Below, one piece after another: positions 11,601-30,207 of a DNA stretch of 64,000 nt. The position numbers and the translations under genes are program-made. Positions within the stretch are counted from its first letter, which is position 1; each line of letters begins with the position of its first letter. The notes under the pieces are model-generated. The model was not told the origin of the DNA and ran no database searches. It saw nothing but the letters and a program-made list of their open reading frames with translations. Source of the stretch: Pseudomonadota bacterium (GTDB taxonomy: Bacteria; Pseudomonadota; Alphaproteobacteria; Rhizobiales; CAJQND01); assembly GCA_039030315.1 (NCBI GenBank), contig JBCCEL010000001.1, positions 9,714 through 73,713 of the forward strand, given 5' to 3'.

Positions 11601-14577
11601 GCATCTGGGTCTGCAGGTGACAGATGCGTTCGACGGGTTCCATGCAGAACCGAAGTTCTTCGATCTCCCCGTTGCGCCCTATGCCGGATTTGATCTGGAC
11701 GCCATTGCCACAGCGCTTGACGAACTGGAACGGGCCGGTGCGATGGATCAGCCAGCAAAGGCCAGGGTCCTGATGGATCTTCTGGAAGATCTCTTGCGGG
11801 AACTGGACCGGAAGGCGCGGCCGCGCCTGACCGCCGAAGTCGGTGGTCTGCAGCTGGATGCCCGGCGCGTAGGGGTTCCGGCTGGCAAGGTTGTACATTT
11901 GTCTGCCCAGCCTGTCGTCGCCGAGACCTACTTTGACAATGGCCACGATTTCTATTGCATGGAGCCGCGTCTGACAGAGATTGCAGCGGGCAGGCTGGAA
12001 GACGCCTGGCTCTTCCCGGGCGTCGCGCTGCAGATCGAAGCCATGCAATTGCCCGAACTTGGGCTCCCGGCTGAAGACTGGTGGCGGGACGCCAGGATCG
12101 CTCCTCTCGGTCGGACAAGGGAATACGGTCTGGACCTCGATCTCACGGACTATGCCAGCAGACCCTTCAGTGATCCCGCCTTCAATTTCTGGCGCCAGTT
12201 CGCACAGGCCGACGTCGCGACTCAGCGCTGGCGCCCGACCGGCCGGCCGATCTACCACTGGATAAGGCCGGTCTCGGCAGTCGGCGGGATCGAGCATGTT
12301 TCCGGCCCCGTCGTCGATCTCAGCCACCTGGTCGCCGATCCTTCGCAGAAATCCTTGTTGTTCGAGTTTGAGAGTGACGCGTTTGACCGGGACGTGGATG
12401 AATCGGACATAGTGCGGGTGCGGCTTGATCCGGTGGACCGGATCACCCGGCTCAACACATTCAGCTGGGAGCAGCACTCCGCTACGGCGCGGCGCCACCG
12501 GATCGATCTGCGGACCCGTTACTGGGGCGGGCTCAGAAATCCTTCTGCTCGGCCCATGGTGGCCCCGCCGTCCGAGCCGCCCAGGGCCGACGATGATCTC
12601 TGGACGAACCGTGCAGCCATACTGGCGGATCTCAGCGTGCTTGAGCTGACCCGCCCCCAGGTCAGGGCGCTTCTGCCTCTGACCCGCCGCGTGGGTGACG
12701 CTGGATCCGCGCTGCCGATCGCCTGCCTGCTGGCGGAGAAGCCGTTTGACCAGGCCGGGCTGGCCGACCGGATCGCAGCCGAGATCGACACGGTGGAGAA
12801 GTTCAGGTTCTACGACCTCGACAGCACGGCCGGTGACCGCCGCCTCGGACTGGAAACGCTCCGCAAGGAAGTCGGACCTGACCCCCGGCTGAGCTACTAC
12901 GGCATCGGAGACCAGCCATCCCGGAAGTTCTCCTTGATGTGCGAAGGGCCCGTCGGGCTGCACTTCGAAGCAGTCGATGCGGCCGCGCCGGCCTTCACCA
13001 ATTCCCAGTACCTGCTGCATATGCGGGCCAGTGGAGACGACGTGCCAGGTATGGATGAGAGCTTTGCCGGCATCTCGCTGCGCCGCTATGTGGATCCGGA
13101 CTGGTCCTGGTCTCCTTACACTGCCGCGCCGGAAAGCCTGCCGGATGTCTGGTGGCAGGACCTGCTGACCGACGAGATGTTCACCGATTTCCTGGTGACC
13201 TACGAGAATCCGCAAAGCGGGCAAACCGTTTCCGCAGTCTCCGTTGCACCATCCGCCGATGGTCAGGAGTTCGTCTTCCGCTTGGCGACAGAGGCAATCT
13301 ATCCAACGCCCGGCGAACTGGATGGCGCGCCGTCATCCGTTGAACTCTGTCGTGTGGCGGTTGGACAGCCGGCAAGCGTTCTCTTCCAGAAGCTTGATGC
13401 CAGCAGATATGCATTCTCGGTCTTCGTGCCCGGTCCTTCCCCGACCCAGACCGCGGTGGAGGTCGACGGGGCGTCCGGGTTGCCGATCCTCCTCGCAAGC
13501 ATGGACTGGACCGCAATGGGCCCGGTGACCGTGAGCGGTGAGGTCAGCATGAAGCGTGCGATCACCGCTTCGGCCGCTACGTTCGTGGAGTGGGCCCGCT
13601 CCGGGCGGGATTTCCAGAAGTTCGTTGCTACGCCCCTCCAAGAGGACGCGGAAGGATCAACTGTCCAGCAGCGGGACATTGAAGCAGTCTGGGACAGGAC
13701 AGAGCGCCGGATTGCACTGCGCTCGGCCGTTTTCGACGACGCGGAGATCCGGCTTTCGAGCCTGACCGGGCAGGAACCCTATCCTCTTCATGTCCAGCGT
13801 CACCTGGCAATCCTGCTGACGAAGGCGTCGCCTGCGCTCGGCCGGGAAGTACCCCTGTTCGACCGGATCCTGCTGAGTGACGGGGCCGGTATCCCCCTGG
13901 CAGGTGATGATCCTGATCCCGGGGCAACTCTGCGGCTGGTGGAGTACGAAACCAGGGCCGAGGTTCTCACCAGCGATCGGTCCCATACGGTCGAGTACTT
14001 CCACCGGGCCTACTTTGATCTGGTGTCGATCGGTGCAGACACCAGATTGCAAAGCGGTGACGGGTTCCGTTTCCATCTGCGCCTCACGAACGGATCAATG
14101 CCGAAGGATATCGCGCCGGTCCTGCACATGAGCGGTGCAGGTGCTCCCGAGGGCGAAACGCCCATTGCCCTGTCCGCCAGGACTCCTGACGAGCTGCAGG
14201 CGCTCACCGTGGAGCTTGTGCTGTCCGATGCGGCCGACACCTGGAACTGGCGGGCAACCGGGCGAACGAAGAACGGCCCTGTGGAGCTCGATGGAGGCAC
14301 CGTGGACCTGCCGTTTCTGGCAGCCGGTGAAGACGGCGTGTGGCTCCGGTTGGAGGCGCCGGGCCCGGGCCTCTGGGCCGACGTCTCCATGCTGTTCTCC
14401 CGCGCGAAGGCAGAAGAGCAGCGGGACGCCGCTTTCGATTTCGACTGGCTGTTCACCGCCGACACCCTGCCGCGCAAGGCCACCGAGGCTGTCATGCCTG
14501 AGAACCTGGTCCACATGTCGGAGGCTCAGGCAAAGATAATCGCCGTCTCCGACCCCATCGTGGTGCAGACGCGCTGA
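8695..14577 (+). CDS. giant protein 2 (1960 aa), unknown function, translationally coupled to giant protein 1
   Basis: GTG start overlaps the upstream TGA (GTGA at 8695..8698). A GAGGAA Shine-Dalgarno sits 6 nt upstream. 5.9 kb uninterrupted ORF. No TM segments, signal peptide or nucleotide-binding motif recognised by eye. Confidence 0.85.
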   Translation: MKIFIHTNTSAEPGAFHGDENKIFYAVHLAAEVCRDAATDTEADAKEVFADFLGKAPTFKYALVPDIGLGVAEAVDVEATAGSLGGLMDWLEQRDPNAAGASDPEPYYLTPTAEPAVTDTFDAATVGAAQLLRSTLNWIGPVPERLGLTRLIAQDSAPSAQAAIIPYLGATPPASVVTDGSTITYDLAGTLGGISEVSVVFEELGDYTAPSSIVLPDGSVEAVPADPEFRRTLNRIDAESAGRLWTVPHMLEPYDDVDWSSLDARKWLADAGLKSAFDPLFWSLAMPATLATGELAPRGQIMLPFIAFLAGANERFGHAAGVDADQAWSTWRPRLRTVLSSLSFADLVGLLRDVEAVDPETLGVLEDAEAGEVPDDGKTADERVAQLRETLNAAVVALQEEAAVEAVIVALLRKVADSSALEPTAERPAFDAAMRAFGEFLEEGFNGADAVRRSVGSIISRELVLKASRDLDALNESLAEADLFARRLLGRTGTPQDLDQLLDALPDSFAGVAPATLRARLQERYREVATMLSSPPAAEMRFVPDTSPQPLAIRILPGMDVAELTEISSALQGFGVVINSKIRGDEDAGHGNLVRVNPGSSTIPTAVQPLIPGLSDGRPVLFAEYNGRPLAGASQTGIGGRDAIEDAEQRAARELASRVYYNLDEAEEEDLLPADLAYGAQYAAKAFWTPNSGRLPAGLRDGTDPSKPVKPAGDFKPQIPDGAAYYLRRTAISETGLSEVDARKRISVVPADVFPLASDYPRIAKSAPAEATGYIDVFRNGDGTGALPDGTASIVLVDALVVGAGAEVQLRRCWDPTGADEGIEFAATLAGNGSDETLQVPADSDARPFWVRVVLTAGSGEGATLSFADPSDDAELEGKPATAPILLLAQGDEWQSEIARENVLELSVPRVSFADFERWAANRELFVHSTGNTDDRLPQVLLVASMMRHLSETIDELIEQLPDPAVSALHLGLQVTDAFDGFHAEPKFFDLPVAPYAGFDLDAIATALDELERAGAMDQPAKARVLMDLLEDLLRELDRKARPRLTAEVGGLQLDARRVGVPAGKVVHLSAQPVVAETYFDNGHDFYCMEPRLTEIAAGRLEDAWLFPGVALQIEAMQLPELGLPAEDWWRDARIAPLGRTREYGLDLDLTDYASRPFSDPAFNFWRQFAQADVATQRWRPTGRPIYHWIRPVSAVGGIEHVSGPVVDLSHLVADPSQKSLLFEFESDAFDRDVDESDIVRVRLDPVDRITRLNTFSWEQHSATARRHRIDLRTRYWGGLRNPSARPMVAPPSEPPRADDDLWTNRAAILADLSVLELTRPQVRALLPLTRRVGDAGSALPIACLLAEKPFDQAGLADRIAAEIDTVEKFRFYDLDSTAGDRRLGLETLRKEVGPDPRLSYYGIGDQPSRKFSLMCEGPVGLHFEAVDAAAPAFTNSQYLLHMRASGDDVPGMDESFAGISLRRYVDPDWSWSPYTAAPESLPDVWWQDLLTDEMFTDFLVTYENPQSGQTVSAVSVAPSADGQEFVFRLATEAIYPTPGELDGAPSSVELCRVAVGQPASVLFQKLDASRYAFSVFVPGPSPTQTAVEVDGASGLPILLASMDWTAMGPVTVSGEVSMKRAITASAATFVEWARSGRDFQKFVATPLQEDAEGSTVQQRDIEAVWDRTERRIALRSAVFDDAEIRLSSLTGQEPYPLHVQRHLAILLTKASPALGREVPLFDRILLSDGAGIPLAGDDPDPGATLRLVEYETRAEVLTSDRSHTVEYFHRAYFDLVSIGADTRLQSGDGFRFHLRLTNGSMPKDIAPVLHMSGAGAPEGETPIALSARTPDELQALTVELVLSDAADTWNWRATGRTKNGPVELDGGTVDLPFLAAGEDGVWLRLEAPGPGLWADVSMLFSRAKAEEQRDAAFDFDWLFTADTLPRKATEAVMPENLVHMSEAQAKIIAVSDPIVVQTR

Positions 14578-16275: not shown

Positions 16276-17466
16276 ATGAGCTTTGTTGGCGGTGACTATA
16301 TTCACGATGTCTTCATCAGTTACAGCCACGGCACGCTGAATGACGGGGTCCCGGGTCCTCTCAAGGACTGGTCCGATGCGTTTGCCGAGGAACTTCGCAC
16401 CCGGATCCATCAGATCTTTCTGTTTCGGAACGTGTCAGTCTTCTTTGATAGCTCAGAACGCCCGGCAGAGAGCGTTGATCGCAGTAGGAAACTAACCGGC
16501 CAAATTCAGAAGCATGTCCGTGGGTCAGCCATCCTGGTCAGTCTCATGACGCCGCACTATTCGGACTCTGATTGGTGCGGCGAGGAGCGGAACTGGTGGA
16601 TTGAAGAAGGCGAGACCCGGACCCTGGACATGGACGGAAGGATCATCGTCTGCAAGGTCATGCCGAACGTGACGGAGGCGGGATGGAGCCTTACCAGAGA
16701 GCACGAGTCCTGGCCGGAGTGTTTCAAGGACGAGAACGGACATGGGCACGTCGGCTTCAGCTTCTACTCTCAGTCCGGCGTGACCGCAGGCACAGTCCCC
16801 TACAAGTGGCTTGGATCAAGCAACGGCCTGGACGAATTTGATGCTGAAATGCGCATGCTCGTGTCCAGCATTACCAACCGGCTCACCGAGATAAAGGCCG
16901 AACTGGACCAACGTGCCCGATGTACGGACCCCGCCGGCGGAGGGGAGAGGGAGCAGATCAGCGTCCGCATCGCAGAGCCGGATTTTGGTGAAGAGTCGAT
17001 CGATGTAATCTATCTGCACGCGCGAAAGCCGCAGGCGGCGTGGTGGAACTCTGTGCGTGACACGCTGATCGACAAGGGGCGGATCATAGTACCTGATGAG
17101 TTGTCGCTGAACGAAATCGGCGCGAGGGAGCAAAAGCGACCGGCAGGAAGGAACGAAGAGCAGGTTGCCGAACGCATAGAGGCGAGAAACGAGCTCCTCT
17201 GCGAGTGCGATGCCATCGTGATCCTGGGCACGGAAAAGAATGATCTCCTGCGCAAAGATCTTCTCAGTATCGGGTTGCGTGCCTGGAGAAAGGCATGCGG
17301 ATTCCAGCGCAAGGTCCTGCCGCGGGCACTGTTGAGCAAGATCGGGGAACCGGTTCCGTTGGCCAGGAATCTCAAGATTCCGGAATGCAACGGCCGCAAT
17401 GCGGCCTGGCCTCGACAACTGGCCGAAGAGTTCAGGCGCACTGCCGCACGCGATGCTGAGCCATGA
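16276..17466 (+). CDS. TIR-domain protein (N-terminal TIR, about 240-aa uncharacterised C-terminal region)
   Basis: DVFISYSHGT at the N-terminus, VFFDSSE, and ILVSLMTPHYSDSDWCGEE (the SxWCxxE-type region holding the usual catalytic Glu, nt 16573..16587). AT-rich upstream region. The stop overlaps the next start (ATGA at 17463..17466). Confidence 0.8.
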   Translation: MSFVGGDYIHDVFISYSHGTLNDGVPGPLKDWSDAFAEELRTRIHQIFLFRNVSVFFDSSERPAESVDRSRKLTGQIQKHVRGSAILVSLMTPHYSDSDWCGEERNWWIEEGETRTLDMDGRIIVCKVMPNVTEAGWSLTREHESWPECFKDENGHGHVGFSFYSQSGVTAGTVPYKWLGSSNGLDEFDAEMRMLVSSITNRLTEIKAELDQRARCTDPAGGGEREQISVRIAEPDFGEESIDVIYLHARKPQAAWWNSVRDTLIDKGRIIVPDELSLNEIGAREQKRPAGRNEEQVAERIEARNELLCECDAIVILGTEKNDLLRKDLLSIGLRAWRKACGFQRKVLPRALLSKIGEPVPLARNLKIPECNGRNAAWPRQLAEEFRRTAARDAEP

Positions 17467-20400
17467 CATTGGTCGCCCCGTTCTCTGAATCTTTAGATCA
17501 TGCGCTGCCGGACAAGCCGTATCCGGGCCTGCGTGCGTTTGAGAAGGAGGAGTGGCCGATCTTCTTCGGCCGTGAACGCATGATGTCCGAGGTTGTCAGC
17601 CGGGTTCTGGAACACCAGCTGGTGGTCGTTCACGGTTCATCCGGTTGCGGAAAATCTTCTCTGATCCGGGCTGGGGTATTGCCGGAACTCGAGATCGAAC
17701 ACAGCGAACTGGGCAAGCAGTGGCGGACCGTGATCACCCGGCCAAGCTACGGTCCGATTGACGGTCTGGCACGGGCCATGGCCGATCTCGTGGAGGCTGG
17801 CTCAAGAGAACCGGAACGTATTGAAGAGGACCTTGCCGAAATCCTTTCATCCGGCCGCGAGGCTGCGCCTAGGCTGGCCGATTACCTCCGCCGGAATGAG
17901 AATGACTACGTCTGTGTCCTGATCGATCAGTTTGAGGAGCTGTTTGCCCATGCCAAGCGGGTGAGCCGGGCCGAAGCAATTGTGTTGACCGATGTGCTGG
18001 TTGGCCTGCAGCAGCATCGGCCAGAGGGGCTGCACTTCATCTTGACCATGCGTTCTGAGTTTCTCGGCGAGTGCGGCCGGTTCGACCGGTTTGCTCAGAC
18101 CGTGAACGCCACGCAGTATCTCCTGCCCGAGATGGAACGGGCAGATCTGCTCCGGGCCATCTGCCACCCCGCCGAACTGTTCAACGGGCACGTGAGTGAG
18201 AAGCTTGCGGTGCGGATGATCCGGGAGACGGAAGGCCGGCAGGATGAATTGCCGCTGATCCAGCACGGGCTGATGCTGATGTCGCAGGACAAGCTGGAAC
18301 GAACTGATCACGCGGAGGAAGACGGCTCGATTGCCGGTTTCAAGGCCTGGAATCTGGACCTTCGGGACTATTCAGAGCGCGGTGGGCTTACGCAGATCCT
18401 TTCAGACCATGCCGATAGGGTGTTTGAGACAGCGCTACAGCAGAACCTGGGGCCAGGCGGTGCCGTGGTCGGCCAGGAGCGTATCCGGGTTCTTCTGGCC
18501 CACACCTTCCGTGCGCTGACGGATGTCAATGCAGAGGGGCAGGCGATCAGGAGGCCGCGAGCATTCGGTGAACTGTGCAGGATTTGCGGTGCGAAGGGAC
18601 CGTTTCTTGCGCGGCTGCTGGCACCCTTCCGAGCGGATGGCGTTTCGTTTCTTGTTCCGTACGAACCCGCCGAGCTCACGGACGACAGCATTGTCGATAT
18701 CAGCCACGAGGCGCTGATCCGCTGTTGGGGGCTCATTGCGAAGGAAGAAACTGGTTGGCTGGCGCAGGAGTTTGAGGCCGGATTGAGATGGCGGACGCTT
18801 GTGCACCAGGCGCGGCGCTCCGGGCCGGGTGCAACCCGCGCGCCACTAAGCGCTTCAGCGACAGAGGATCTGCAGGCATTCCTGCCATCACTGCCATCGT
18901 CCGCGTGGGCGGACCGCTATGGAGGCGGGTATGGGGATGTCAGGAGCCTTCTCGAGCTGAGCCGCCGCGTGAACAGCCAGGCGCAACGGCGGAAGGACGC
19001 GGTTATCAAGTGGGGCGGACTCTCTCTGGCCCTGGTCGCGACGGCGTTCGCCGCAATTTCCGCGTTTCAATGGAGGCAAGCAACGAACTCGCGAGAGGTG
19101 GCGTTGAATGTTGCAAAAATTGCGCGACAAAACGCTGAGAGTGCACGCAGATCATTGGGAAGGGCCGTTGCTGCGCGAAGGGCGATGCGGAAAGCGTTGC
19201 GACGAGCTCGGGAGAGCGAGGCCCGGGCTCGGGAGAGCGAGGCACGGGCTCGGAGAGCATTGGTTAAGGCAGGTCGGGCGGAGCTGGAAGCAGAAAAACA
19301 AGCACTCCTGGCTCGAAAGGCAGAAAAGGAGGCCATCAATGCTGCCAAAGGCCAATCTCTTCTCTGGGCGCGGCAAGCGCGAACGCAATTGAAGAAAAAC
19401 CTTCCATCACTGGCTGCAAACATTGCACTGGCCGGACTTCCTGCAAATCCCGATAATGCCGAGCGGCCCTGGGTTGCCCAACTGGCGGGAGTGCTGATCG
19501 AGGCGCTGAGCAGAATTCAAGCTGCGAGTGCAAGACCGATCCGTCCGGTAGCAGTCAATGCGGCGGCGTTTTCGCCGGACGGAAGGCGGCTGGTGTTTGG
19601 TGGCAGGGATGGAAGGGTGCGCCTCAATGATGCGCGAAGTGGAGCGGTGCTCTGGACCCGGTCCGGTCATCATACGGCAGTTTCTTCCCTCGCCTTTTCT
19701 CCCGACGGTCGGCGGCTGGCGTTCGGCGCAGGAGACGGAGTCGTGCAGGTTTGGGATGCCAATCGTGGCAGGCCCCTTTGGAAACGACAGGGACATAGGG
19801 GCACGGTCACCTCTGTCGCGGTTTCTCCCGATGGCAAACGTGTGGTCTCAGCCGGTTCTGCTGGGCGGTTGCGGCTTTGGGATGCGGTGAGGGGCACTCC
19901 GCTCAAAGATTTGAAAGGCCAGACTGGTGCTGCATCCTCGGTTGCATTTTCGCCCGACGGCAAGCGACTGGCTTCCGCCGGCTCTGGAGAAACGCTGCGA
20001 CTTTGGAACCTTGAGTTTGACGGCAAGTTCGAAGAACTGCACGGGCATGTGAGCGCTGTAAAGTCGGTTGCATTCTCGCCTGACGGCAGACGGCTGGTTT
20101 CGGGAGACAACGACGAGACCGTCCTTCTCTGGGACGCCCGCAGTGGCAAGCTTCTCAGAAGGTTAAGTGGTGACAAGGCCAGGGTATACGCGGTTGGGTT
20201 TTCGCCTGATGGCAAGAGGGTGCTGGCGGCGGGCGGAAAAAACAGAACGGCGCGGCTGTGGGATGCCGAAACAGGCAGAACCCTTGTCGCCCTGAAGAAC
20301 CACAAAAGCGAGGTTAGATCGGTTGTGTTTTCGCCTGACGGCAGGCGCTTTGTGTCTGCGGACCGTGACGGGAACGTCAAGACCTGGCCTCGCCGCCGCG

Positions 20401-21368
20401 GTTACGGCAGGCAGAACCCGCGTATCTCCGGCCCCGTCGGGTTTTCGTCTGACGGCAGGCTGGCGGCGTCAAATGGTTCGCGTGGATCTGGTGGAACGAT
20501 ACGTCTGTGGAACGCGCAGAGCGGCAGGGAACTGCGTGATCTGAAAACCGGCCAAAGCCGGCTCACCAAGTTTGCCCTTTCGCCTGACGGCAAGCGCTTG
20601 GCTTCCGGTGGGGCCGACGGAACAGTAAGAATTTTGAACGTTGCCACCGGTCGGCCCCTTTATCAAATGAAGGGGCATCGCGCCAGCGTGACCTCCATCG
20701 CGTTTTCGCTTGACGGCCGGCGGGTGGTATCGGGTGGTTACGACAAGTCAGTGGGACTTTGGGACGCGGTGAAGGGGCAGCAACTTTGGAGGGTCGCCAG
20801 CCGACAGAGTTTCGTTTATGCCGTCGCCGCTTCGTCGGATGGCAAACTGGTGGCGTCCGGCGGTTTTGACGGGACGGTTCGCCTTTGGGGTGCAGCTGGT
20901 GGCCGGGCATTGAGGGTCTTCAAAGGTAGACAGAGTGTGGTGATGTCGGTTGCCATTTCGCCCGATAGCAAGCGGGTAGCTTCCGGCGGCCGTGACGGGA
21001 CGGTGCGGATCTGGGACATTGCAAGTGGGCGCCAGATTCTTAATCTGAAGGGCCACAAGGACGGCGCGGTCTCGGTCGGATACTCGCCCGATGGCAAGCG
21101 AGTGGTTGCCGGAGACAACAGCTCGACCGTACGGATCTGGGACGTAGAAAGTGGCGAAGAACTGATCCAGTTCCGCGGGATACAGGGCGGGGCCACCTAC
21201 GCGGAGTTCTTGTCAGATGGACGAAGGGTGGCGTTCGGCGGCGCGGGCGCATTCGCTATCGCCTTCGTTGGACGGACCAGGGAGGATCTGCTCAAATATG
21301 CGCGGAGTCGCGTTCCGGGGCGTTTGACCACTGAACAGAGAAAACAATTCCTTCTGCCGGCAAACTGA
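17463..21368 (+). CDS. STAND-type P-loop NTPase with a hydrophobic segment, Arg-rich coiled coil and about 14 WD40 repeats
   Basis: N-terminal PYPGLRAFEKEEWPIFFGRE followed by Walker A GSSGCGKSS (17634..17660) and Walker B-like VCVLIDQFEELF. Hydrophobic WGGLSLALVATAFAAISAFQW. Coiled coil with RESEARA duplicated. Then repeated xFSPDGxRLxSGxxDxTxRLWD units from about 19540 to 21250, enough for two 7-bladed propellers. Confidence 0.9.
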   Translation: MTLVAPFSESLDHALPDKPYPGLRAFEKEEWPIFFGRERMMSEVVSRVLEHQLVVVHGSSGCGKSSLIRAGVLPELEIEHSELGKQWRTVITRPSYGPIDGLARAMADLVEAGSREPERIEEDLAEILSSGREAAPRLADYLRRNENDYVCVLIDQFEELFAHAKRVSRAEAIVLTDVLVGLQQHRPEGLHFILTMRSEFLGECGRFDRFAQTVNATQYLLPEMERADLLRAICHPAELFNGHVSEKLAVRMIRETEGRQDELPLIQHGLMLMSQDKLERTDHAEEDGSIAGFKAWNLDLRDYSERGGLTQILSDHADRVFETALQQNLGPGGAVVGQERIRVLLAHTFRALTDVNAEGQAIRRPRAFGELCRICGAKGPFLARLLAPFRADGVSFLVPYEPAELTDDSIVDISHEALIRCWGLIAKEETGWLAQEFEAGLRWRTLVHQARRSGPGATRAPLSASATEDLQAFLPSLPSSAWADRYGGGYGDVRSLLELSRRVNSQAQRRKDAVIKWGGLSLALVATAFAAISAFQWRQATNSREVALNVAKIARQNAESARRSLGRAVAARRAMRKALRRARESEARARESEARARRALVKAGRAELEAEKQALLARKAEKEAINAAKGQSLLWARQARTQLKKNLPSLAANIALAGLPANPDNAERPWVAQLAGVLIEALSRIQAASARPIRPVAVNAAAFSPDGRRLVFGGRDGRVRLNDARSGAVLWTRSGHHTAVSSLAFSPDGRRLAFGAGDGVVQVWDANRGRPLWKRQGHRGTVTSVAVSPDGKRVVSAGSAGRLRLWDAVRGTPLKDLKGQTGAASSVAFSPDGKRLASAGSGETLRLWNLEFDGKFEELHGHVSAVKSVAFSPDGRRLVSGDNDETVLLWDARSGKLLRRLSGDKARVYAVGFSPDGKRVLAAGGKNRTARLWDAETGRTLVALKNHKSEVRSVVFSPDGRRFVSADRDGNVKTWPRRRGYGRQNPRISGPVGFSSDGRLAASNGSRGSGGTIRLWNAQSGRELRDLKTGQSRLTKFALSPDGKRLASGGADGTVRILNVATGRPLYQMKGHRASVTSIAFSLDGRRVVSGGYDKSVGLWDAVKGQQLWRVASRQSFVYAVAASSDGKLVASGGFDGTVRLWGAAGGRALRVFKGRQSVVMSVAISPDSKRVASGGRDGTVRIWDIASGRQILNLKGHKDGAVSVGYSPDGKRVVAGDNSSTVRIWDVESGEELIQFRGIQGGATYAEFLSDGRRVAFGGAGAFAIAFVGRTREDLLKYARSRVPGRLTTEQRKQFLLPAN
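19206..19260 (+). repeat. 21-bp in-frame tandem duplication (about 2.6 copies) inside the STAND coiled coil
   Basis: gctcgggagagcgaggcccgg / gctcgggagagcgaggcacgg / gctcggagagca, encoding ARESEARARESEARARRA. Confidence 0.8.
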
Positions 21369-21651: not shown

Positions 21652-24090
21652 TTATCGGCGATTGGTCGGTTTCCACCTTGCATCCCAGGCAACGAGTTCC
21701 GCCTCCAACACGGGCCAAACCTCGGCCAGCTCCCACAAGTCGTCGTACCAGGGCGGTGTTGGAAGTTCGACGTCAACGGCATCCGGCAAAACCTGTTCGG
21801 ACAACCCGCATTTCTCGAGCTCCGGCAAGACCTGTGTTTCGATGTCCTGATGCAGGGATATTGACCAGAGAGCGATCAGATCCGATCTGGCAGCTATGGC
21901 AATTTTTGCCAGATAGCCTTCGAACCCCTGGCCCGCAAAGTGGCTCCAAAACGTCTGGATCAGGCCCTTCGGCCAATGCGGGTGTTTGCCGTTCAACGAA
22001 GACTGGAGCACCGTTTCCAGGGCTTTGTACACGTCTGAATGCAGATGGTGCGAAAGTGCCCGGCTGATCCAGAGTTTGTGTGCGTCCGGCAGAATTTTGG
22101 CTTCGCGCGAAAAGTCCGGCAGAAGATCGGAAAGCGCGCAAAAGTGTCTCTCGACTTCAGGACTGAATGTGCCGGGTTCAGAGGAGTGGGCAAAGTCAGG
22201 CCACGCCTCGTCCAGCACGCTGGGTCTGATCTCGCGGATGCGTTCGGGTAACTCGATCTCCGGAGCATGATGAAGCTCTCCGGTCGATGCGATATGCACG
22301 ATGAGTTCGTGCCGGATTCGATCAGCGAAGAAAGTATCCGGAGAGTGCAGGCTGTGCCGGAAGGCCGACCTGACATTTCCAAAAGTCAGTTCCCCGGAGC
22401 GGGAGTATGCCAACAAGCCGACGGGATGCTCCCGGTGACGCGCGATGACATGATCGATCTCGCTTGGGCTTTGCAGCTTGAGCACTTCGCCATCGAAGAC
22501 ATGAACCCGGTCAATCATGCCTTGCCACCATCGGGCGTCCTGAACGCCCGGAGGCCTCTGAAACTGCTCTTCGATCGTGCCAGCGGGCGGTTTGAGTTCC
22601 TGCGTTCCGTGCGGCACACCCGGAAAGCGCGCGAGCGTCTGATAACACCTCAACCTCTCGGGTCCATCGTTAAGAGTCGCGAGAAAAGCGTCGTTCATGG
22701 CCCAGTTTCTTGTCCAGCGTGTGTGCCATGTCGATGGTGGCGGCTTGCTTTCGACCAGTGACACCGGATTTCTCCAGATGCGCAGAAGCCTCATCCAGGC
22801 AAGGCTGGTCGGTTGCATGTGCCGCGTATGCTGAAGAAAGTTTATCAGCCTGGACTTCTGCAGCCTGCCGAGGGCCGCCCCAAATCGCTCCTCCACATAG
22901 GCCACCAGTTCGGGTTCCGACTTGTCAATCAATGCATCCGCAATGAAGTCGAGTTGCGTTTCCATGACCGGAACGTACTCAAAGATCCCGTGGAGCCGTA
23001 TCAATGCGGACAAGTCCGTAGGGCTGCGAAAGTTGCCGACGCACGCTGAGCAATAAACGTTGTTTACAAGCTTCTTGGCGAAACGCGCGCTGGCGTTGCC
23101 GTGCAGCATAAACACGCGCGCCAGGTCGCCGCAGATAGACGGATGCGTGAATGTTTGCGCGACACGGCAGTCCGGGTTCCTCTGGGCCAGTTCCATGGCG
23201 AAGGAACTTCCCATCTCGCCGGCATCCCTCGCGTTCATGGGGGCAAGCCTGAAGCTGGCATCAAAAACCTTGGTGAGGAACTCCTGGATTTGCTGCTGAG
23301 TTTGCGCCGCTTCGAGTATCGGCGAGTCGTCAAAGACCACCAACACAACACCTTCAAAGTCCAGCCTGTGACGGTTCAGACTTTTGAGAACCGCTTCCTG
23401 CTGTTCGGTCGATGCACGATCCAGATCATCAATTATGAGCATGTCGGGCCGCATGATAATTCGGTCGGCAGCGGTGTAGAGCACCTGCGACAGGGGGTTC
23501 CCGAGGCGCAGCGATCGCCAGACGTCGCGCACGACGTGGCGCAGCGAACCGAAACTCAGCGCAAGGAAGCTCAAGACGGAAAGCAGCAGCTGTTGCTGGG
23601 CAAGAAACTCCAGGCCTGAGATTAGAGACAGGTTTTGCGTGAGGAAAAAGACTGCAACCGCGAGCGATGTGGCGATGATCAGGAGCAGCCTAAGTCGCGC
23701 GCCCTCGATGAAATGATCGAAATTGTAAAGCAGGTCTTCGGGCGCGTAGTTTGCGCAATTGAAGTTCAGTATTCTTGCGGGAACCAGTTTCTTGCGACCG
23801 GAGATTATCTTCAGATCAATGTCACGCCGCAGTTGTTCGATCACTCCCGACTTGCCCTGGCCAAACCGTCCGTGCAGAGCGAGAAAGAGGTTTTTCGGGC
23901 CCTGATTCCGGGAGGCAGCCTTTCGATGGAGAAAACTGTCGACCGTTCTGAGCAACTCTCCTGCAATCCGGTTCTGCTCGAACAGTTCGGGCAGATGGGG
24001 CTCGGAGGTTGACGCGTCGTCCAGCAGGAACCGGTCGGGCGGAGCCGGCCGTCGCTCAGGCCATTCGCCACGCCCAGCTCTGGACATCAC
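21652..24090 (-). CDS. KAP-family P-loop NTPase (membrane-inserted), last gene of the kinase operon
   Basis: Walker A GRFGQGKSG (23848..23871). Two hydrophobic helices are inserted between Walker A and B (LLLIIATSLAVAVFFLT, LLLSVLSFLALSFGSL). Walker B is MLIIDDLDRAS, the DDLDR form typical of KAP NTPases. About 430 aa of C-terminal region are unassigned. The start overlaps the upstream stop (GTGATG at 24085..24090). Confidence 0.85.
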   Translation of the reverse strand: MMSRAGRGEWPERRPAPPDRFLLDDASTSEPHLPELFEQNRIAGELLRTVDSFLHRKAASRNQGPKNLFLALHGRFGQGKSGVIEQLRRDIDLKIISGRKKLVPARILNFNCANYAPEDLLYNFDHFIEGARLRLLLIIATSLAVAVFFLTQNLSLISGLEFLAQQQLLLSVLSFLALSFGSLRHVVRDVWRSLRLGNPLSQVLYTAADRIIMRPDMLIIDDLDRASTEQQEAVLKSLNRHRLDFEGVVLVVFDDSPILEAAQTQQQIQEFLTKVFDASFRLAPMNARDAGEMGSSFAMELAQRNPDCRVAQTFTHPSICGDLARVFMLHGNASARFAKKLVNNVYCSACVGNFRSPTDLSALIRLHGIFEYVPVMETQLDFIADALIDKSEPELVAYVEERFGAALGRLQKSRLINFLQHTRHMQPTSLAWMRLLRIWRNPVSLVESKPPPSTWHTRWTRNWAMNDAFLATLNDGPERLRCYQTLARFPGVPHGTQELKPPAGTIEEQFQRPPGVQDARWWQGMIDRVHVFDGEVLKLQSPSEIDHVIARHREHPVGLLAYSRSGELTFGNVRSAFRHSLHSPDTFFADRIRHELIVHIASTGELHHAPEIELPERIREIRPSVLDEAWPDFAHSSEPGTFSPEVERHFCALSDLLPDFSREAKILPDAHKLWISRALSHHLHSDVYKALETVLQSSLNGKHPHWPKGLIQTFWSHFAGQGFEGYLAKIAIAARSDLIALWSISLHQDIETQVLPELEKCGLSEQVLPDAVDVELPTPPWYDDLWELAEVWPVLEAELVAWDARWKPTNRR

Positions 24091-25322
24091 TCGGCTGCTT
24101 GTCTTAGCTCGAGACGGTTCGTTTCGCTGTTGCGGTCTGCTTCAAAGCCTTTGTCGAGAGGAATCAGCCGACCGCCGTCCCCCAACCGCGTGAAGACGCG
24201 TCCAGGCCGTGTTTGCGGAACATTGCCGGTAAAGTGGATCTCGGTTTTGACACTCTGCCGATGGTTGAGGTCGGTATAGACCAGGTAACTGTCCCGCTTG
24301 TATGGGCCGGTGATGAGCGGCAGGCGCATGAGCCACGCCACCACATCAAACCACCGGAAGATCTCGGCCAACTGCTTGTCAAAATCTTCTGGAGCGAAGA
24401 CCCGGTTACGGTGTATCGCCGGATTGCGTGTCTCCCGCAAAGTCGCGCAGGCTTCGGTGAAGAACTCCGAGAATTTCTGATTCTCATCCAAATGGAAGTA
24501 GGACTTGATCAGGCCCATGTCGTTGGAACCCTCCAGCCGGTTCAACTGGTTGGATATCCATGATTCAAGTTTGGACGCTGGCGCCTCGGTGCCGGGAGGC
24601 GCTTTCGTGTCCAAATTGAGGCTGGAGACGATCCCGTAGATCAGCTGCGCAAACTCAAGATTGAAGTTCTCGCGAAACTTGCTGAGCTCGGTGAAAAAAT
24701 CCTTGGCCGCGTCATCATCCAAGAACCCTGAACCCGCCAGACGCTTATAGCTGTTCAAGGTGTCGCGAGCGAGATCCCGGAGAGTCGGGAACCCGGATTC
24801 CATCACAAGGGAAAGGACTCGAGCCACATATCTGTCGTGGATCTGCTTGAGAAAAAAATCCGCATACGTCGCGGCCGTCATGTACTCGTGCGCGTCGTCC
24901 GCCTCTTTATCTATGCTGGACTTCACAATGTACGGGATCTGGGCTTTGGCTCCGGCGAAGTTGGCCAGATTGGTGTTGGGGTAAGCGGTAAACAGCGCCA
25001 TGAAGCCGGGCGGGTCCCATGCTCGCAGTTCCTCTATGAAATCTCGTCCCTTCTCCCGGGATACCGGACCTCCGGGCTCGTCAGGCAGATTCTGATCAAT
25101 CGATACTCCGTGAAAGCAGTGATTGCGAACTAGCTTCAATGCCTCGGCTGTTGTTTCTGCGCAACTGAGGTCAACGTCGACGTCGAGTGTATCGCCTGCG
25201 ATCCGCATGGCCCGTTTGATGTCAGCTATCCAGGTCGGAGTGTCCTCAATGACAAGAATTCGCATTACGTGCTTCACGAACGTTTCCTTCAACTTCAAGC
25301 AAGCTTCAGAGCCGGAGTTCAA
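24087..25322 (-). CDS. response-regulator receiver (REC) domain protein with a C-terminal HEPN-like (RNxxxH) domain and no HTH
   Basis: REC hallmarks: RILVIEDT (acidic pair), HGVSIDQNLPD (phospho-acceptor Asp), MALFTAY (Thr) and PYIVKSS (Lys). The C-terminal region contains TLRETRNPAIHRN, an Rx4H motif with Asn after Arg (nt 24411..24428). The 25322 start is TTG. GTG at 25277 (AAGGA 7 nt upstream) or ATG at 25265 are alternative starts. Confidence 0.75.
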   Translation of the reverse strand: MNSGSEACLKLKETFVKHVMRILVIEDTPTWIADIKRAMRIAGDTLDVDVDLSCAETTAEALKLVRNHCFHGVSIDQNLPDEPGGPVSREKGRDFIEELRAWDPPGFMALFTAYPNTNLANFAGAKAQIPYIVKSSIDKEADDAHEYMTAATYADFFLKQIHDRYVARVLSLVMESGFPTLRDLARDTLNSYKRLAGSGFLDDDAAKDFFTELSKFRENFNLEFAQLIYGIVSSLNLDTKAPPGTEAPASKLESWISNQLNRLEGSNDMGLIKSYFHLDENQKFSEFFTEACATLRETRNPAIHRNRVFAPEDFDKQLAEIFRWFDVVAWLMRLPLITGPYKRDSYLVYTDLNHRQSVKTEIHFTGNVPQTRPGRVFTRLGDGGRLIPLDKGFEADRNSETNRLELRQAAE

Positions 25323-28083
25323 AACAATTGGCGTCGTCGCGCCGGATCAACACTAGATCGCCCTTGAGATCGTTCGCAATTCCCTGCGAGAGAAACAACC
25401 CTTGCCCGCCGCCTTGAGACTTTGTCGTCGCGCCCATGTTGAAAATTCTGCGGACAAGATCGGGGTCAATCTCATTTCCGTTGTCACACACCGCGCAGCC
25501 TTCTTTTCCGTCGGGCAACCCCTCAAACCAGATGAGGGTCGCTCCGTTTTCCTTGCCGTGAATGAGCGCGTTGTCCAGTAGATTAAACAGGACATAGCTT
25601 GCGAGCTTCGGATCGGTATACGCTTCGATTTCTTCCGAGCGTGTCTCAACACGAAGACCTGCTGCTTTTATCCTCGGTTGCATATCTTCGACGACGGCTC
25701 GCCACAAGCCGACGAGGTCGCACGTGTCATACTCCGGACTCTTAAGCAGCACGCGGGATTTGTCGAAATCCTCCTGTGCAGTTCGCACCCGCTCAACGAC
25801 CTCGTCCAGAATGTCACTGTCAGCATCCTTCGCCCTTCTGCCGAGGTCGACCGCGTTGTAGATGGAAGCGAGCTGGCTGGCGATGGAATGACGTACTTGC
25901 GAGTAGACCCGTCCGGCGCGCGCTTCAATGCGGGCGGCCGTCAGCGCCTCGCCATAGTTGTGGATTTCGGCGAACGTGGTGCTGTAGATCGTGTTGAGGA
26001 ATGTCGAGTAGTCGGAAAACACCTGCACGAAGTGACCAGGGATGGGGCTTGGATGCTCAAAGAGCAGCATCAGCGCCCGCGTTTTCTGCGCGTCTGGCTC
26101 GCCAAAGAGCACAACCACATGAGATAGTGTCGGGCGTCCTCGGGGACGCAGCAGTCCATCACCATCATCGGTCACGCCAAGCTGATTGCCGTGGCTGACG
26201 AAAATGACTTCATTTGTCTTGGCATCAAGGCAGGACTTGAGAAATGTTTCCTGCCAACGCGTGCTGATATGATGATTCATGCCTTCAAGTGTATCGAGCG
26301 GGCGCCGGTTGATTTTGTTGCCGCAATCGTCGCCCTCCCACGCCTTGACAATCTGCCAGGGGTCATCTGAGACTTCCTGCGCCTCGAACAGCAGGAAGTC
26401 GGAGAACCCGCATAGCTCGTAAAGGATCTTTGCTCCCCGATTCAGAAGCGCATCCGGATCTGACGGCTCGCTCGCGGCCGGGTTGACCGCGAGAGATGTG
26501 AGCTGCGCAAGCTGTGTCATGAAACGCTGACTGCGGTGGTTCAACACAGCCGCGGCAGCCGCGCCCGCTACCGCCTCAACAATCGAGACATCGGCTTGCT
26601 TGTATGCGTCCTTGAGGCCCGTTTCCAGATTGATTGCCCCGATCGCGGCACCGTCATAGACAAGAGGAACATTGATGTAAGAGTGTATTTTTATACGCGT
26701 GGTCGGCTTGAATTTCTTGTCACACTCTTCCGGGTCGAGGCTGGTTTTCGTCTGTTTCGATATGATCGCACGCGAGTAGACGCAATCCTCATTCACGCTG
26801 ATCGGCTTGACCCCGTGTTCTTCAAGCAGTCCGATCTTCGATCGTTCCGCTTCTCCCCAGCGGGCGAGCATACCGGTTCCACGCAGGAACAGCCGGGCGG
26901 TGGTTTTCGTCTTGTGCCCGCGAAACTCCAGGGACTCCTGGATCTGGGTGTGGAGAAAATCGCAAAGGCTGGCAGTTATCTGGGCGGTTGAGCTTGCCCT
27001 CAAGACAGTGCCGATTGCATCTGTGAGTGCCTCGAGCCGTTCGTTGGTTCGCTGCGTTGCAAGTGCCAGTCTCAGAAGAACAGCGGCGTGATGCAGGTTT
27101 CGCGCATCGCTTTCGAAAAATTTCCGGTCTTCAGGTTTCCGGTAAGCAGTGAGCAGCGCGATCACGCCTCCGCCCAACGTGCTGCCAACCCGCGCCGCGA
27201 TGGCGTGATGTCCCAGCATTCCTGGTCTGGCACCGACTTGTTTTTCGGTCAGCTCGTTTAGAAACTGCCAGCTGTCTGCGTTGGGCTTGGAGCTGAACAC
27301 AAGCTCCTTCTGGAAATCCGGCGAGTTATCGAGGTTCAGCTTCTCGCCAGCCTCGAACAGTCCGTCGTCCATGGCAATGGCATCCAGAGTGTCCCCGCGC
27401 AGCTCCCTGAAGTACCAGGCAGAAATACCGTAGTGGTCCCGAAGCAAACTTCCCAGACGCTCTGCCGCCTCCCGAACGCCGAGACCGCCGTCAAGAGCGA
27501 CCGACAATTCCTTCTGGCAATCGGTCCAGAACATTTCCCGGGCCTGAGTCTGAAGATCCGGCAAGTCCGTCCGAAACTTCCGGATCGCCGCGCGTCCGGT
27601 CAGCTCGAACTTGCCCATAATCCTTGTTTCGTGGGTGGTTGCCGTTTGCTCCAGGAAGAAACTTTCAATTGCCGTGATTATGGCGATGGGCTGGTATTTG
27701 AGACCGGGCAGTTCGCGAATTCGTCTGGCCAACTCGACACCGTTGCCCTGATCCTTCAGCAACCCGTCTATGTAAATCGCTTCAAATGGCTCCTGCTCGG
27801 AAATCCAGTTGATACAGTCCGACAACCTGGCCCCACGTCTGGATGCGACTCTGAAAAAATAGAAACACGCGCGCAGCTCTGTCTGGAATGAGGAATACTT
27901 TTCCTCCGATTTCCGGAAATCGTTGATGATATCGCTTCTGTCGTCGATAACCAGAATACGCGTGCCGGTGGTGGATGTGCCTTTGATCGGGCCAAACACT
28001 TCCTCGCCATCAACGACGTCCTCCTCCCCGCGGATACCGCGAAGAAGCCTCTCAAATTCCGCCTCCCGGTTGCCCTGGTTCAT
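25306..28083 (-). CDS. hybrid sensor kinase: N-terminal REC-like domain, GAF-type sensor region(s), HisKA/HATPase_c core
   Basis: REC-like: TRILVIDDRS, AIYIDGLL, IAIITA. Central GAF-like stretches (e.g. VPLVYDGAAIGAINLE). H-box candidate VRHSIASQL. N-box LFNLLDNALIHG. G-boxes VCDNGNEI and GGGQGLFL. No TM segment. ATG overlaps the upstream stop (ATGA at 28080..28083) with GAAGGTGA upstream. Confidence 0.85.
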   Translation of the reverse strand: MNQGNREAEFERLLRGIRGEEDVVDGEEVFGPIKGTSTTGTRILVIDDRSDIINDFRKSEEKYSSFQTELRACFYFFRVASRRGARLSDCINWISEQEPFEAIYIDGLLKDQGNGVELARRIRELPGLKYQPIAIITAIESFFLEQTATTHETRIMGKFELTGRAAIRKFRTDLPDLQTQAREMFWTDCQKELSVALDGGLGVREAAERLGSLLRDHYGISAWYFRELRGDTLDAIAMDDGLFEAGEKLNLDNSPDFQKELVFSSKPNADSWQFLNELTEKQVGARPGMLGHHAIAARVGSTLGGGVIALLTAYRKPEDRKFFESDARNLHHAAVLLRLALATQRTNERLEALTDAIGTVLRASSTAQITASLCDFLHTQIQESLEFRGHKTKTTARLFLRGTGMLARWGEAERSKIGLLEEHGVKPISVNEDCVYSRAIISKQTKTSLDPEECDKKFKPTTRIKIHSYINVPLVYDGAAIGAINLETGLKDAYKQADVSIVEAVAGAAAAAVLNHRSQRFMTQLAQLTSLAVNPAASEPSDPDALLNRGAKILYELCGFSDFLLFEAQEVSDDPWQIVKAWEGDDCGNKINRRPLDTLEGMNHHISTRWQETFLKSCLDAKTNEVIFVSHGNQLGVTDDGDGLLRPRGRPTLSHVVVLFGEPDAQKTRALMLLFEHPSPIPGHFVQVFSDYSTFLNTIYSTTFAEIHNYGEALTAARIEARAGRVYSQVRHSIASQLASIYNAVDLGRRAKDADSDILDEVVERVRTAQEDFDKSRVLLKSPEYDTCDLVGLWRAVVEDMQPRIKAAGLRVETRSEEIEAYTDPKLASYVLFNLLDNALIHGKENGATLIWFEGLPDGKEGCAVCDNGNEIDPDLVRRIFNMGATTKSQGGGQGLFLSQGIANDLKGDLVLIRRDDANCFELRL

Positions 28084-29726
28084 GCGTCACCTTCAATTTT
28101 CGCAAACTTTGGAATGGTAAATCGAAATTTCACGGTTGCATCGGACAGGAGCCGCGATTCGGGCGCAAATCCGAACGAACCTCCCAAGTGTTGAGCAATC
28201 TGCCGGCACAAATACAGCCCCTGGCCGTGGCCGACTCCCATGGGCTTGCTCGTTATGCCCTTTTCAAAAATTCGGCTTGATATCTTAACAGGAATGTCGG
28301 GTCCGTCATTGGCAATGATGATGTAGATTTTGTCATCCTGCGAATAGGCTTCGATTGCGATTGTGTGCTTCGGGCCGGAGTCGTGCTCATTGACATCCGG
28401 AATGTCTTCCTTTGCGGCTCCTTGCTCCAGCTCCAGTGGCTTTTCAGCCTGAAGTGAAGGGTCTTCGATCGGGTCCGTTTGATCCGGCACACCATTCGAG
28501 TCAGGCTGTTGCAGGGTCGGCAGAATGGCCTCTAACGCGTTTATCACAACATTCATCACAACGTGCTCGATGTATCGGGCATCCGACACCACTTCGAGAT
28601 CATCCGGTATGTCGATCAGGAACTGAGAGCGGGCGCGGTCCAGGTTGTGCTGAAGAACGGTCTCGACTTCGCGAACCAACGAAAGCAGATCGATTTTGGT
28701 TGCCGGATTCCTGCGCTCGTAGTTCGTAAACGCATCGGTAGTTCTCTTCGCATGATCGATTCTGGTCCGGACGAAGTTAAGCTCTTGCGCGAGATGAAAA
28801 AGCTCTCCGTCGTTGGCCGCGAGAGCGGTATACAATTCTGCCAGAATTTCAGTTGTTCTGCTCAGAGACGACTCCATCAGGCTGAGACTGGTCCCAAGTT
28901 CATGGGTAATTGCACTCGGCGCCAGTCCGGACAACAGCTTCCTTTGGTCTTCTTCTACATGGTCGTGGAGAGATCGAACTCTGTGTTGGAGCAGGGTAAA
29001 AATGTCCGGGACCAGCTGAATAATGTCCCACTCCTGATGGGCCCCGAGAGGAAATGACTTCCCGCCTTCACCTGTGGGATAGAGTGCCAGCAGCGAACGC
29101 TCCGGCTCGCCGCTTTCCGACGCAGGCAGCGGAAGGGAGCAGAGCCAGAACTCTCCCTTGCCGTGCAGGTTGTCGAACTCGTCGGTGTACCGCATATCGT
29201 CGATCGCTCCGTATCCGGCGACGATGCTCCGCAATTCAAAATCATAGCTATGCCGGTGAACAAGCAGGCCGATCAGGAACCTGGACTTCTCTTGACCGCG
29301 CAAGGATTCGCGCAGGTTCTCCACCCGTTGCGGGTTCTTGCTGACCATGTATGGAGCGGTCAGCCCTCGGACTCGAACGCTTTTCTCCGGATACGCCTCC
29401 AGGACCAGAACGCTCCGATCGGAGGCGTCATCCTTAGCCAGCTCTGAAAACAGGCTAGAGAGGAACTGGTTTCGCGAAACCCCGCCCCGAATGGCCTCAA
29501 GCATCTGGCGAATTAACCGCAGGTACGAGGCTGCGGTCCGAGAAGTGGGATTGTGTTTGTCCTGTGATCCGGCGATCGCCTGGATCATTTCTCGCGTAGC
29601 CGTATCGGCGATTGCATCGATGGACTTTCCGCCAGATTGCGCCTGTCTCAGTGCGCTCAAGATTTGGCTTCTGACTTGCGTAGTGACGTTTTCGAGGCGT
29701 ACTTGGGCTTTGGTCTCTCTATTCAA
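28080..29726 (-). CDS. soluble sensor histidine kinase (first gene of the operon)
   Basis: H-box SAITHELGTSL. N-box MNVVINALEA. G1 IANDGPDI. G2 GVGHGQGLYL. No TM segment. The N-terminal 270 aa are unassigned. TTG start at 29726 preceded by AGGAGG. About 50 aa of acidic insertion sit between the N-box and G1. Confidence 0.85.
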   Translation of the reverse strand: MNRETKAQVRLENVTTQVRSQILSALRQAQSGGKSIDAIADTATREMIQAIAGSQDKHNPTSRTAASYLRLIRQMLEAIRGGVSRNQFLSSLFSELAKDDASDRSVLVLEAYPEKSVRVRGLTAPYMVSKNPQRVENLRESLRGQEKSRFLIGLLVHRHSYDFELRSIVAGYGAIDDMRYTDEFDNLHGKGEFWLCSLPLPASESGEPERSLLALYPTGEGGKSFPLGAHQEWDIIQLVPDIFTLLQHRVRSLHDHVEEDQRKLLSGLAPSAITHELGTSLSLMESSLSRTTEILAELYTALAANDGELFHLAQELNFVRTRIDHAKRTTDAFTNYERRNPATKIDLLSLVREVETVLQHNLDRARSQFLIDIPDDLEVVSDARYIEHVVMNVVINALEAILPTLQQPDSNGVPDQTDPIEDPSLQAEKPLELEQGAAKEDIPDVNEHDSGPKHTIAIEAYSQDDKIYIIIANDGPDIPVKISSRIFEKGITSKPMGVGHGQGLYLCRQIAQHLGGSFGFAPESRLLSDATVKFRFTIPKFAKIEGDA

Positions 29727-30207
29727 CTGACTGTTTGCCTCCTATGGTTGAAGGTAAATATCATGATACTTCAAAGTATACAATAAACTCCGCTCCGATT
29801 GCGGTCCACGGCGGCTGAAGCCTGCGTAGCTTGCGGCGAGAAGTCTGCCAAGCAACGATTCTCAGCACAAGCCGGGTTGTTTGACCAAATCAAGCCTACG
29901 AGGTTCTGCGATTCTGGGCGACCACATCGCAGAGGCAGGGGACGCAGAGGTATCTGTCCAATACTTGCTCCCGCTCTTGCGAGAGCGCACCATAGCACCG
30001 CAGAAGAGAACTTTGCGTCCCTGCACAAGACCGGATGATACACTCGAGTGCCAATGGATGTCCTGAGTATGCTCAACACGCCCGGCCAGTAGCGATAGAA
30101 AAAGAAACCCAAGTATCGGCTTTGCTCCTCAATGCGGCCGTCACGATTATGACGATGTCATCGTCGGTTGAAGTCCGATGCCGGGCAAAGCACTGGCGGC
30201 GAGCGTC

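Follow-up and report, generated by a model that had tools for sequence, protein, structure and literature searches.

In a 64,000-nucleotide stretch of DNA from a member of the Rhizobiales (Pseudomonadota bacterium, contig JBCCEL010000001.1 of assembly GCA_039030315.1), which we refer to throughout as the window, we analysed the gene for a response regulator, P0001, that lies in a compact cassette with two histidine kinases and a KAP-family NTPase. Its product joins a receiver (REC) domain to a C-terminal region whose only invariant residues make up an RNxxxH motif, the candidate catalytic signature of a HEPN ribonuclease (RNase). We propose, at roughly even chances, that the regulator is a phosphorelay-gated HEPN RNase effector, and that it acts within a three- or four-gene cassette in a manner resembling the defensive two-component system Detocs. 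The gene and the parts of its product are as follows, with coordinates given as positions in the window.

24087..25277, minus strand: response regulator P0001, 396 residues, with two linker helices between its REC and HEPN-like helical domains and a small beta domain at the C-terminus
24888..25265, minus strand: REC domain, residues ~5-130, from conserved residues and Foldseek
24324..24716, minus strand: HEPN-like helical core, residues ~188-318, from the AlphaFold2 model and sub-threshold Pfam matches to HEPN_Swt1 and four other HEPN families
24411..24428, minus strand: R284-N285-P-A-I-H289, candidate HEPN catalytic motif, the only invariant C-terminal columns
24099..24317, minus strand: C-terminal six-stranded beta domain, residues ~321-393, from the strands of the model

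The initial annotation had described an open reading frame at 24087..25322 on the minus strand as a receiver fused to a putative HEPN RNase. The frame is borne out, and its likelier start is the GTG at 25277, which is the choice made by NCBI (where the protein is named 'MAG: response regulator [Pseudomonadota bacterium]') and has GAAGGA ahead of it. The N-terminus of the regulator is a divergent but genuine receiver. The canonical REC positions already named in that annotation are present and conserved across the regulator family, with E11 found in 18 of 20 members, D12 in 20 of 20, D61 in 21 of 21, T97 in 22 of 22 and K119 in 23 of 23; the codon of D61, the putative phospho-acceptor (SIDQNLPD), lies at 25097..25095 on the minus strand. 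Pfam Response_reg matches the regulator at E=0.0025 and 18.4 bits, below its gathering score of 30.2. In the full-length AlphaFold2 model, alternating strands and helices across residues 4-125 form the (beta-alpha)5 receiver fold, and Foldseek matches this model to the receivers of ArcA, PhoP, MtrA, XynC, HemR and RcsB with a probability of 1.00 (TMt 0.6-0.72). The family also has atypical REC signatures of its own, HG[IV]SIDQN[ML]P and IPY[IK]VKS. An ANTAR or DNA-binding output domain was considered for the regulator and rejected, as Pfam gave no signal for either. A terminator-like hairpin with a T-run lies inside the reading frame at the REC/linker boundary (24860..24874, minus strand); it is probably a product of chance, as such sites were fewer in the scan than in shuffles.

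The segment of the C-terminal region in which the motif had been reported, TLRETRNPAIHRNRVF, is present, and R284 (24428..24426) and H289 (24413..24411) lie where they had been placed. By chance, one protein of the regulator's composition would hold 0.03 copies of RNxxxH and about 1.9 of the looser Rx4-6H. Taken by itself the motif is weak evidence, as P0001 has a second RNxxxH (R51-H56, RNHCFH; 25110..25127, minus strand) in its REC domain, just before the phospho-acceptor strand; here R51 and N52 are unconserved and H56 is conserved in 20 of 21 members. What raises the C-terminal copy above chance is the invariance of R, N and H among its relatives. These three are the sole invariant columns in an alignment of 23 C-terminal regions that share 19-54% identity with P0001, and three randomly placed columns would fall within 6 residues of one another with p ~9e-4. 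RNxxxH is found in 23 of 24 family members, and also in the cassette loci L005, L011, L013, L014 and L016. The only member to lack it is P0020, a 142-residue fragment that starts inside the helical domain and has LG...D instead of RN...H, and which is perhaps a decayed copy. That the motif might be a functionless chance occurrence in the linker or tail of a response regulator is a reading that can draw on the roughly twofold expectation for Rx4-6H in a protein of this size and on the unconserved copy in the REC domain; against it stand the invariance of the three columns in 23 divergent homologues and the confident folding of the region (predicted local distance difference test, pLDDT, 94). 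The conservation analysis in effect refutes this reading, which we regard as essentially excluded and as extremely improbable.

The predicted structure of the C-terminal region places the motif in a recognisable setting. With the 23-sequence alignment as input, AlphaFold2 gave a confident model of residues 133-396 (pLDDT 94.3, predicted template modelling score 0.91); residue numbers in this model become protein numbers on adding 132. Two helices, 3-27 and 32-50 in model numbering, come right after the REC domain and are followed by a long helix, 56-87, that bears a conserved FRE with E203 (24671..24669). This position is acidic in 22 of 23 members and stands ahead of an insert after the long helix (88-136, a loop and two short helices, 88-128), and an Ex3[KR] pattern is partly kept, with R at +4 in 6 of 23. 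The next helix, 137-157, has R152...H157 at its C-terminal end and leads through a loop (158-163) into the kinked last helix of the helical core (164-169 and 171-186). Judged from secondary structure alone, the order of these elements fits point for point the HEPN anatomy set out in PMC3710099, in which the motif ends a long helix, a loop and a kinked helix follow, and an insert and an acidic residue lie upstream. Six strands with pLDDT above 90 complete the model (189-261). The Foldseek matches of this beta domain are weak (E 0.3-2, probability at most 0.54) and nearly all are to nucleic-acid-binding OB folds, among them cold-shock, HIN, RPA and RNase II/R domains; as modelled, it is possibly an OB-like small barrel.

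Profile comparisons also return HEPN families. Pfam HEPN_Swt1 matches the reading frame at E=0.0037, with residues 281-328 aligned to profile positions 68-114 of 115. When all 23 members were scanned over a 63-residue segment holding the motif, 11 of the 22 Pfam matches were to HEPN families, five of them in all (Swt1 with six matches, RiboL-PSP with two, and Cthe2314, MAE_28990 and Apea with one each); the families matched by more than one member were HEPN ones only, with HEPN_Swt1 ranked top, and shuffled control sequences matched nothing.

Several results weigh against a HEPN relationship for this domain. Every Pfam HEPN match lies below its gathering score, the best reaching 18 bits versus 27.5, and the family consensus reaches HEPN_Swt1 at merely E=2.3. 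Changing R, N and H to alanine abolishes all of the HEPN matches, with unrelated weak ones persisting; because this masking removes them all, the Pfam matches restate the motif and do not amount to independent homology. Sequence-profile searches of the PDB with 4-sequence, 23-sequence and motif-region profiles found no HEPN, yielding designed helical repeats, CD81 and other compositional matches only, and searches of the regulator against PADLOC, NCBIfam and PHROGs gave nothing relevant. Comparison of the C-terminal domain by Foldseek, a check that the initial annotation had itself put forward, left the helical part unmatched in the PDB and BFVD at E<=0.001. Foldseek is weak on helical bundles, and for this reason the empty result is not strong negative evidence. 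The fit of the model to HEPN anatomy, moreover, is one of secondary structure, and across all of these searches there was no homology signal independent of the motif. A weak match of the consensus to DUF6615 (E 0.05-0.16) does survive the masking; we found no literature on DUF6615. The earlier claim of a receiver joined to a HEPN RNase is partly supported. On balance, we find it fairly probable that the C-terminal domain is related to HEPN at all.

The regulator is the third gene of a cassette whose minus-strand order in the window is HK1, HK2, regulator and KAP, the other three genes being the following.

28080..29726, minus strand: HK1, soluble sensor histidine kinase, reading frame of 548 residues (526 in NCBI), Pfam HATPase_c E=1.2e-11
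25306..28083, minus strand: HK2, REC-GAF hybrid kinase, 925 residues, Pfam GAF_2 1.5e-08 and HATPase_c 1.1e-08
21652..24090, minus strand: KAP-family P-loop NTPase, 812 residues, Pfam KAP_NTPase 31.9 bits (cut-off 20)

The stop of HK1 overlaps the start of HK2 by 4 nt and the start of the KAP gene overlaps the stop of the regulator, overlaps that suggest translational coupling. In HK1, an uncharacterised N-terminal portion of ~270 residues precedes an H-box (APSAIxHE) and a HATPase_c domain that contains an insert; nine orthologues share invariant H, N, G1 and G2 boxes. HK2 runs from an N-terminal REC, in which D, T and K are conserved, through GAF and an H-box to HATPase_c, the REC-like N-terminus and the H-box being conserved in 10 orthologues. 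Taken over both kinases, the H, N and G boxes show no variation across 9-10 orthologues. In the KAP protein of the window, an inserted hydrophobic membrane segment separates Walker A (GRFGQGKS) from Walker B (LIIDDLD); orthologues of this protein conserve Walker A as GRxGQGK[ST], carry hydrophobic segments at ~130-190, ahead of Walker B, and score 20.4-25.8 bits against KAP_NTPase in L003, L004 and L005.

Our survey of the cassette covered 15 distinct loci (the window, L001, L003-L009, L011-L014, L016 and L017). The order HK1, HK2, regulator is kept in all 15 wherever the DNA extends far enough, HK1 comes first in every locus with enough upstream DNA, and a KAP gene lies 3' of the regulator in nine. 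In L012 the KAP gene is split into 5767..6198 (143 residues, with Walker A) and 6228..7130 (at least 301 residues), which may reflect a frameshift, decay to a pseudogene or faulty assembly. L001 and L016 both hold the three-gene form without KAP, in each case between MFS/P450 genes and hemY/HEM4/tsaD; in L001 alone, the cassette is followed by an additional block of glycosyltransferase and dTDP-sugar genes.

The regulator family is very rare: 4 clusters were found among 5.8 billion proteins and about 24 among 1.84 billion representatives, where an exhaustive HMMER search gave 21 at E<=0.001. When the larger set was searched by profile, at E<=10, for distant relatives bearing a Pfam label, only 4 family members came back. 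Most members have ~380-430 residues and the same layout, and the shorter P0010, P0020 and P0021 look truncated. A scan of genomes gave one match, in R. palustris BisB18, and a scan of metagenomes one further locus. The former, L005, lies in the complete Rhodopseudomonas palustris BisB18 genome (NC_007925 4360649-4377518) and holds the four-gene cassette; L016 comes from a Bradyrhizobium assembly.

In the window, a TIR/STAND conflict-system pair lies directly beside the kinase cassette and is convergent with it.

16276..17466, plus strand: TIR-domain protein (TIR_2, E=1.9e-05), overlapping the nSTAND1 gene by 4 nt
17463..21368, plus strand: nSTAND1 NTPase, 1301 residues, with ~11 WD40 repeats

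Similar company is found elsewhere. The cassette adjoins an ABC-3C-type system (MC2, CTD6 and a 608-residue protein) in L007 (1531..4995), and a phage-type integrase, a 1300-residue MmeI-like restriction-modification enzyme and an nSTAND3/DUF4143 ATPase in L008 (287..15739); L006 has patatin and insertion sequence (IS) neighbours and L003 a PIN protein. In L005 a MarR-PLD-like protein is encoded upstream and DUF6361 and a PLD-like protein downstream, flanking genes that are possibly another defence module. Furthermore, the GC content of the operon is 0.55-0.57 versus 0.60-0.64 in the flanks (window 22000..30000), 4-6% lower, which is consistent with horizontal acquisition. These observations are suggestive of an islet that moves horizontally and is often inserted in the company of conflict systems. 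Elsewhere in the window are two giant overlapping plus-strand reading frames with no meaningful Pfam match, at 1286..8698 (2470 residues) and 8695..14577 (1960 residues), with a GC content of ~0.63.

These features enabled us to propose a model for the action of the cassette. A cytoplasmic signal would cause HK1 and/or HK2 to phosphorylate D61, with the REC domain on HK2 possibly adding a cascade or buffering step. Phosphorylated REC domains dimerise in many response regulators, and it is plausible that dimerisation of phospho-REC here would pair two HEPN-like domains. The two RNxxxH motifs could then form a composite active site, making the regulator a putative divergent, metal-independent endoribonuclease. 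HEPN RNases are typically dimeric (PMC13092281), and the catalytic roles of the R, the following polar residue and the H are known for KEN, PrrC and RloC (PMC3710099). The OB-like beta domain may hold RNA, whose cleavage would lead to growth arrest, and the KAP NTPase might serve as a sensor, a membrane anchor or a second effector.

The patchy distribution, the low GC and the neighbours suggest that this is a conflict or anti-phage system. Three observations argue in the other direction: we saw no effector swapping among the HK1 homologues of the protein database, every one of the 14 belonging to the same cassette; scans of plasmids and viral contigs were without any copy; and the Bradyrhizobium-type loci L001 and L016 have ordinary neighbours, namely haem, P450 and transporter genes. 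We put forward only as a tentative possibility, somewhat short of an even chance, that the cassette represents a conflict or anti-phage system not described before, where HK1 and then the REC-GAF kinase HK2 form a cascade that assembles a REC-HEPN-OB RNase dimer, with KAP as an optional sensor or second effector.

Two other accounts of the C-terminal domain and its cassette have to be set beside the phosphorelay-gated RNase. The domain may be a new helical output that is not HEPN at all, with R, N and H forming a binding site, so that the regulator signals by binding a nucleotide, a phospho-group, the KAP NTPase or some other partner and not by cutting RNA. No profile or fold match outlasts the masking of the three residues, the Foldseek and PDB searches are empty as this account would have it, and the overlap of the regulator gene with the KAP gene in 9 of 15 loci fits a protein partner; KAP is nevertheless absent in 6 of 15 loci, whereas the motif is kept in every full-length member, and it would be a striking coincidence for such a domain to show R-polar-H spacing exactly as in proven HEPN RNases, a HEPN-like helix end and an upstream acidic residue. 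We think this account rather unlikely.

A further account accepts the domain as a HEPN-type RNase or RNA binder and sets it in an ordinary physiological two-component system that exerts post-transcriptional control in response to a metabolic signal sensed by GAF. Both kinases are cytoplasmic, GAF domains commonly sense metabolites, and the haem, P450 and transporter neighbours in Bradyrhizobium and the lack of phage or plasmid copies would all be natural for such a system, as would the non-defence and non-catalytic roles recorded for HEPN proteins such as MtlR (PMC3710099). The extremely sparse and patchy distribution and a GC content below that of the flanks fit it poorly, and most of the other loci adjoin TIR/STAND, ABC-3C, restriction-modification, PLD, patatin, integrase or IS genes. 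We judge it unlikely.

Of the known systems, Detocs is the closest in logic to the proposed phosphorelay-gated effector. In both, an operon with kinase genes ends in a REC that is joined to an enzymatic domain, one that does not bind DNA and could be toxic, and the effector is, or in our case would be, switched by phosphotransfer. Detocs comprises the kinase DtcA, the buffer REC DtcB and the REC-effector DtcC (bioRxiv 10.1101/2023.01.24.525353); the extra REC is DtcB in that system and the HK2 N-terminus here. The cassette differs in having two kinases and not one, often with a KAP NTPase in addition, and in its HEPN-like effector, as opposed to PNP, restriction endonuclease, TOPRIM or transmembrane hydrolase domains. 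A DtcB-like stand-alone REC gene is absent from the loci examined, where the sole extra REC is the HK2 N-terminus; no TPR sensor was matched by Pfam in HK1 or HK2; and the four cassette proteins have no match to Detocs in PADLOC at E<=1, the presence of Detocs models in that release being unconfirmed. With no DtcB gene, no TPR sensor and no PADLOC match, we rejected membership of Detocs and regard the cassette as working like it without belonging to it.

Eukaryotic kinase-extension nuclease (KEN) domains offer an analogy, and no more, at the level of the switch. In Ire1 and RNase L, an N-terminal signalling domain dimerises on phosphorylation or ligand binding and so activates the RNase. Ire1 and RNase L would share with the regulator a HEPN-type RNase with an R-N-x3-H-type site and a signalling domain at the N-terminus; they differ in being eukaryotic, in a switch that is a Ser/Thr kinase or pseudokinase and not a receiver, and in the circular permutation of KEN. 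Among HEPN domains themselves, the Abi2/Swt1-like clade (HEPN_Swt1 PF18731; PMC3710099) appears to resemble the regulator in an R-N-x3-H that ends the last helix but one of the core, with a kinked helix after it, and may also do so in a conserved acidic residue upstream and an insert between the helix pairs. The regulator departs from this clade in its sub-threshold, motif-dependent scores, and in its two extra N-terminal helices and C-terminal beta domain. In CARF-HEPN (Csm6/Csx1) and CBS-HEPN (DS-11, PMC13092281) proteins, which act in defence, an N-terminal regulator governs a dimeric HEPN RNase at the C-terminus, as we propose here, but it responds to small ligands (cyclic oligoadenylates, adenine nucleotides), whereas we propose aspartyl phosphorylation by cognate kinases. 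Fusions of a sensor to HEPN, as in CARF-HEPN, CBS-HEPN and kinase-KEN, are a known theme, and the regulator would therefore not be a new category. The main text of PMC3710099 describes no REC-HEPN fusion, its lone mention of a receiver domain concerning a different transmembrane domain, and in the literature that we searched there was no description of HEPN with a response regulator, a histidine kinase or an output domain. KAP-family NTPases, finally, have been noted in phage defence (PMC8195603). The fourth gene of the cassette resembles these in passing the KAP_NTPase threshold and in having hydrophobic segments within the P-loop domain; it differs in a marginal PADLOC similarity (PifA E=0.04, Nhi E=0.08) and in being an optional partner of a two-component system.

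The idea of a phosphorelay-gated RNase is directly testable, because the cassette is small and is present in a named strain whose genome is complete, R. palustris BisB18; a phosphorylation-gated RNase could also serve as a switch in synthetic biology. If the proposal is right, aspartyl phosphorylation would join cyclic oligoadenylates, AMPylation, kinase dimerisation and guide RNAs among the switches of HEPN RNases, and the regulator would give the first demonstration of a HEPN nuclease under such control, as a bacterial two-component counterpart of Ire1/RNase L. The N-terminal domain of HK1 would then be a candidate intracellular infection sensor, and the cassette would stand next to Detocs as a second, independent family of two-component systems for defence, which would mean that two-component phosphorelays have been recruited to cell-autonomous immunity more than once.

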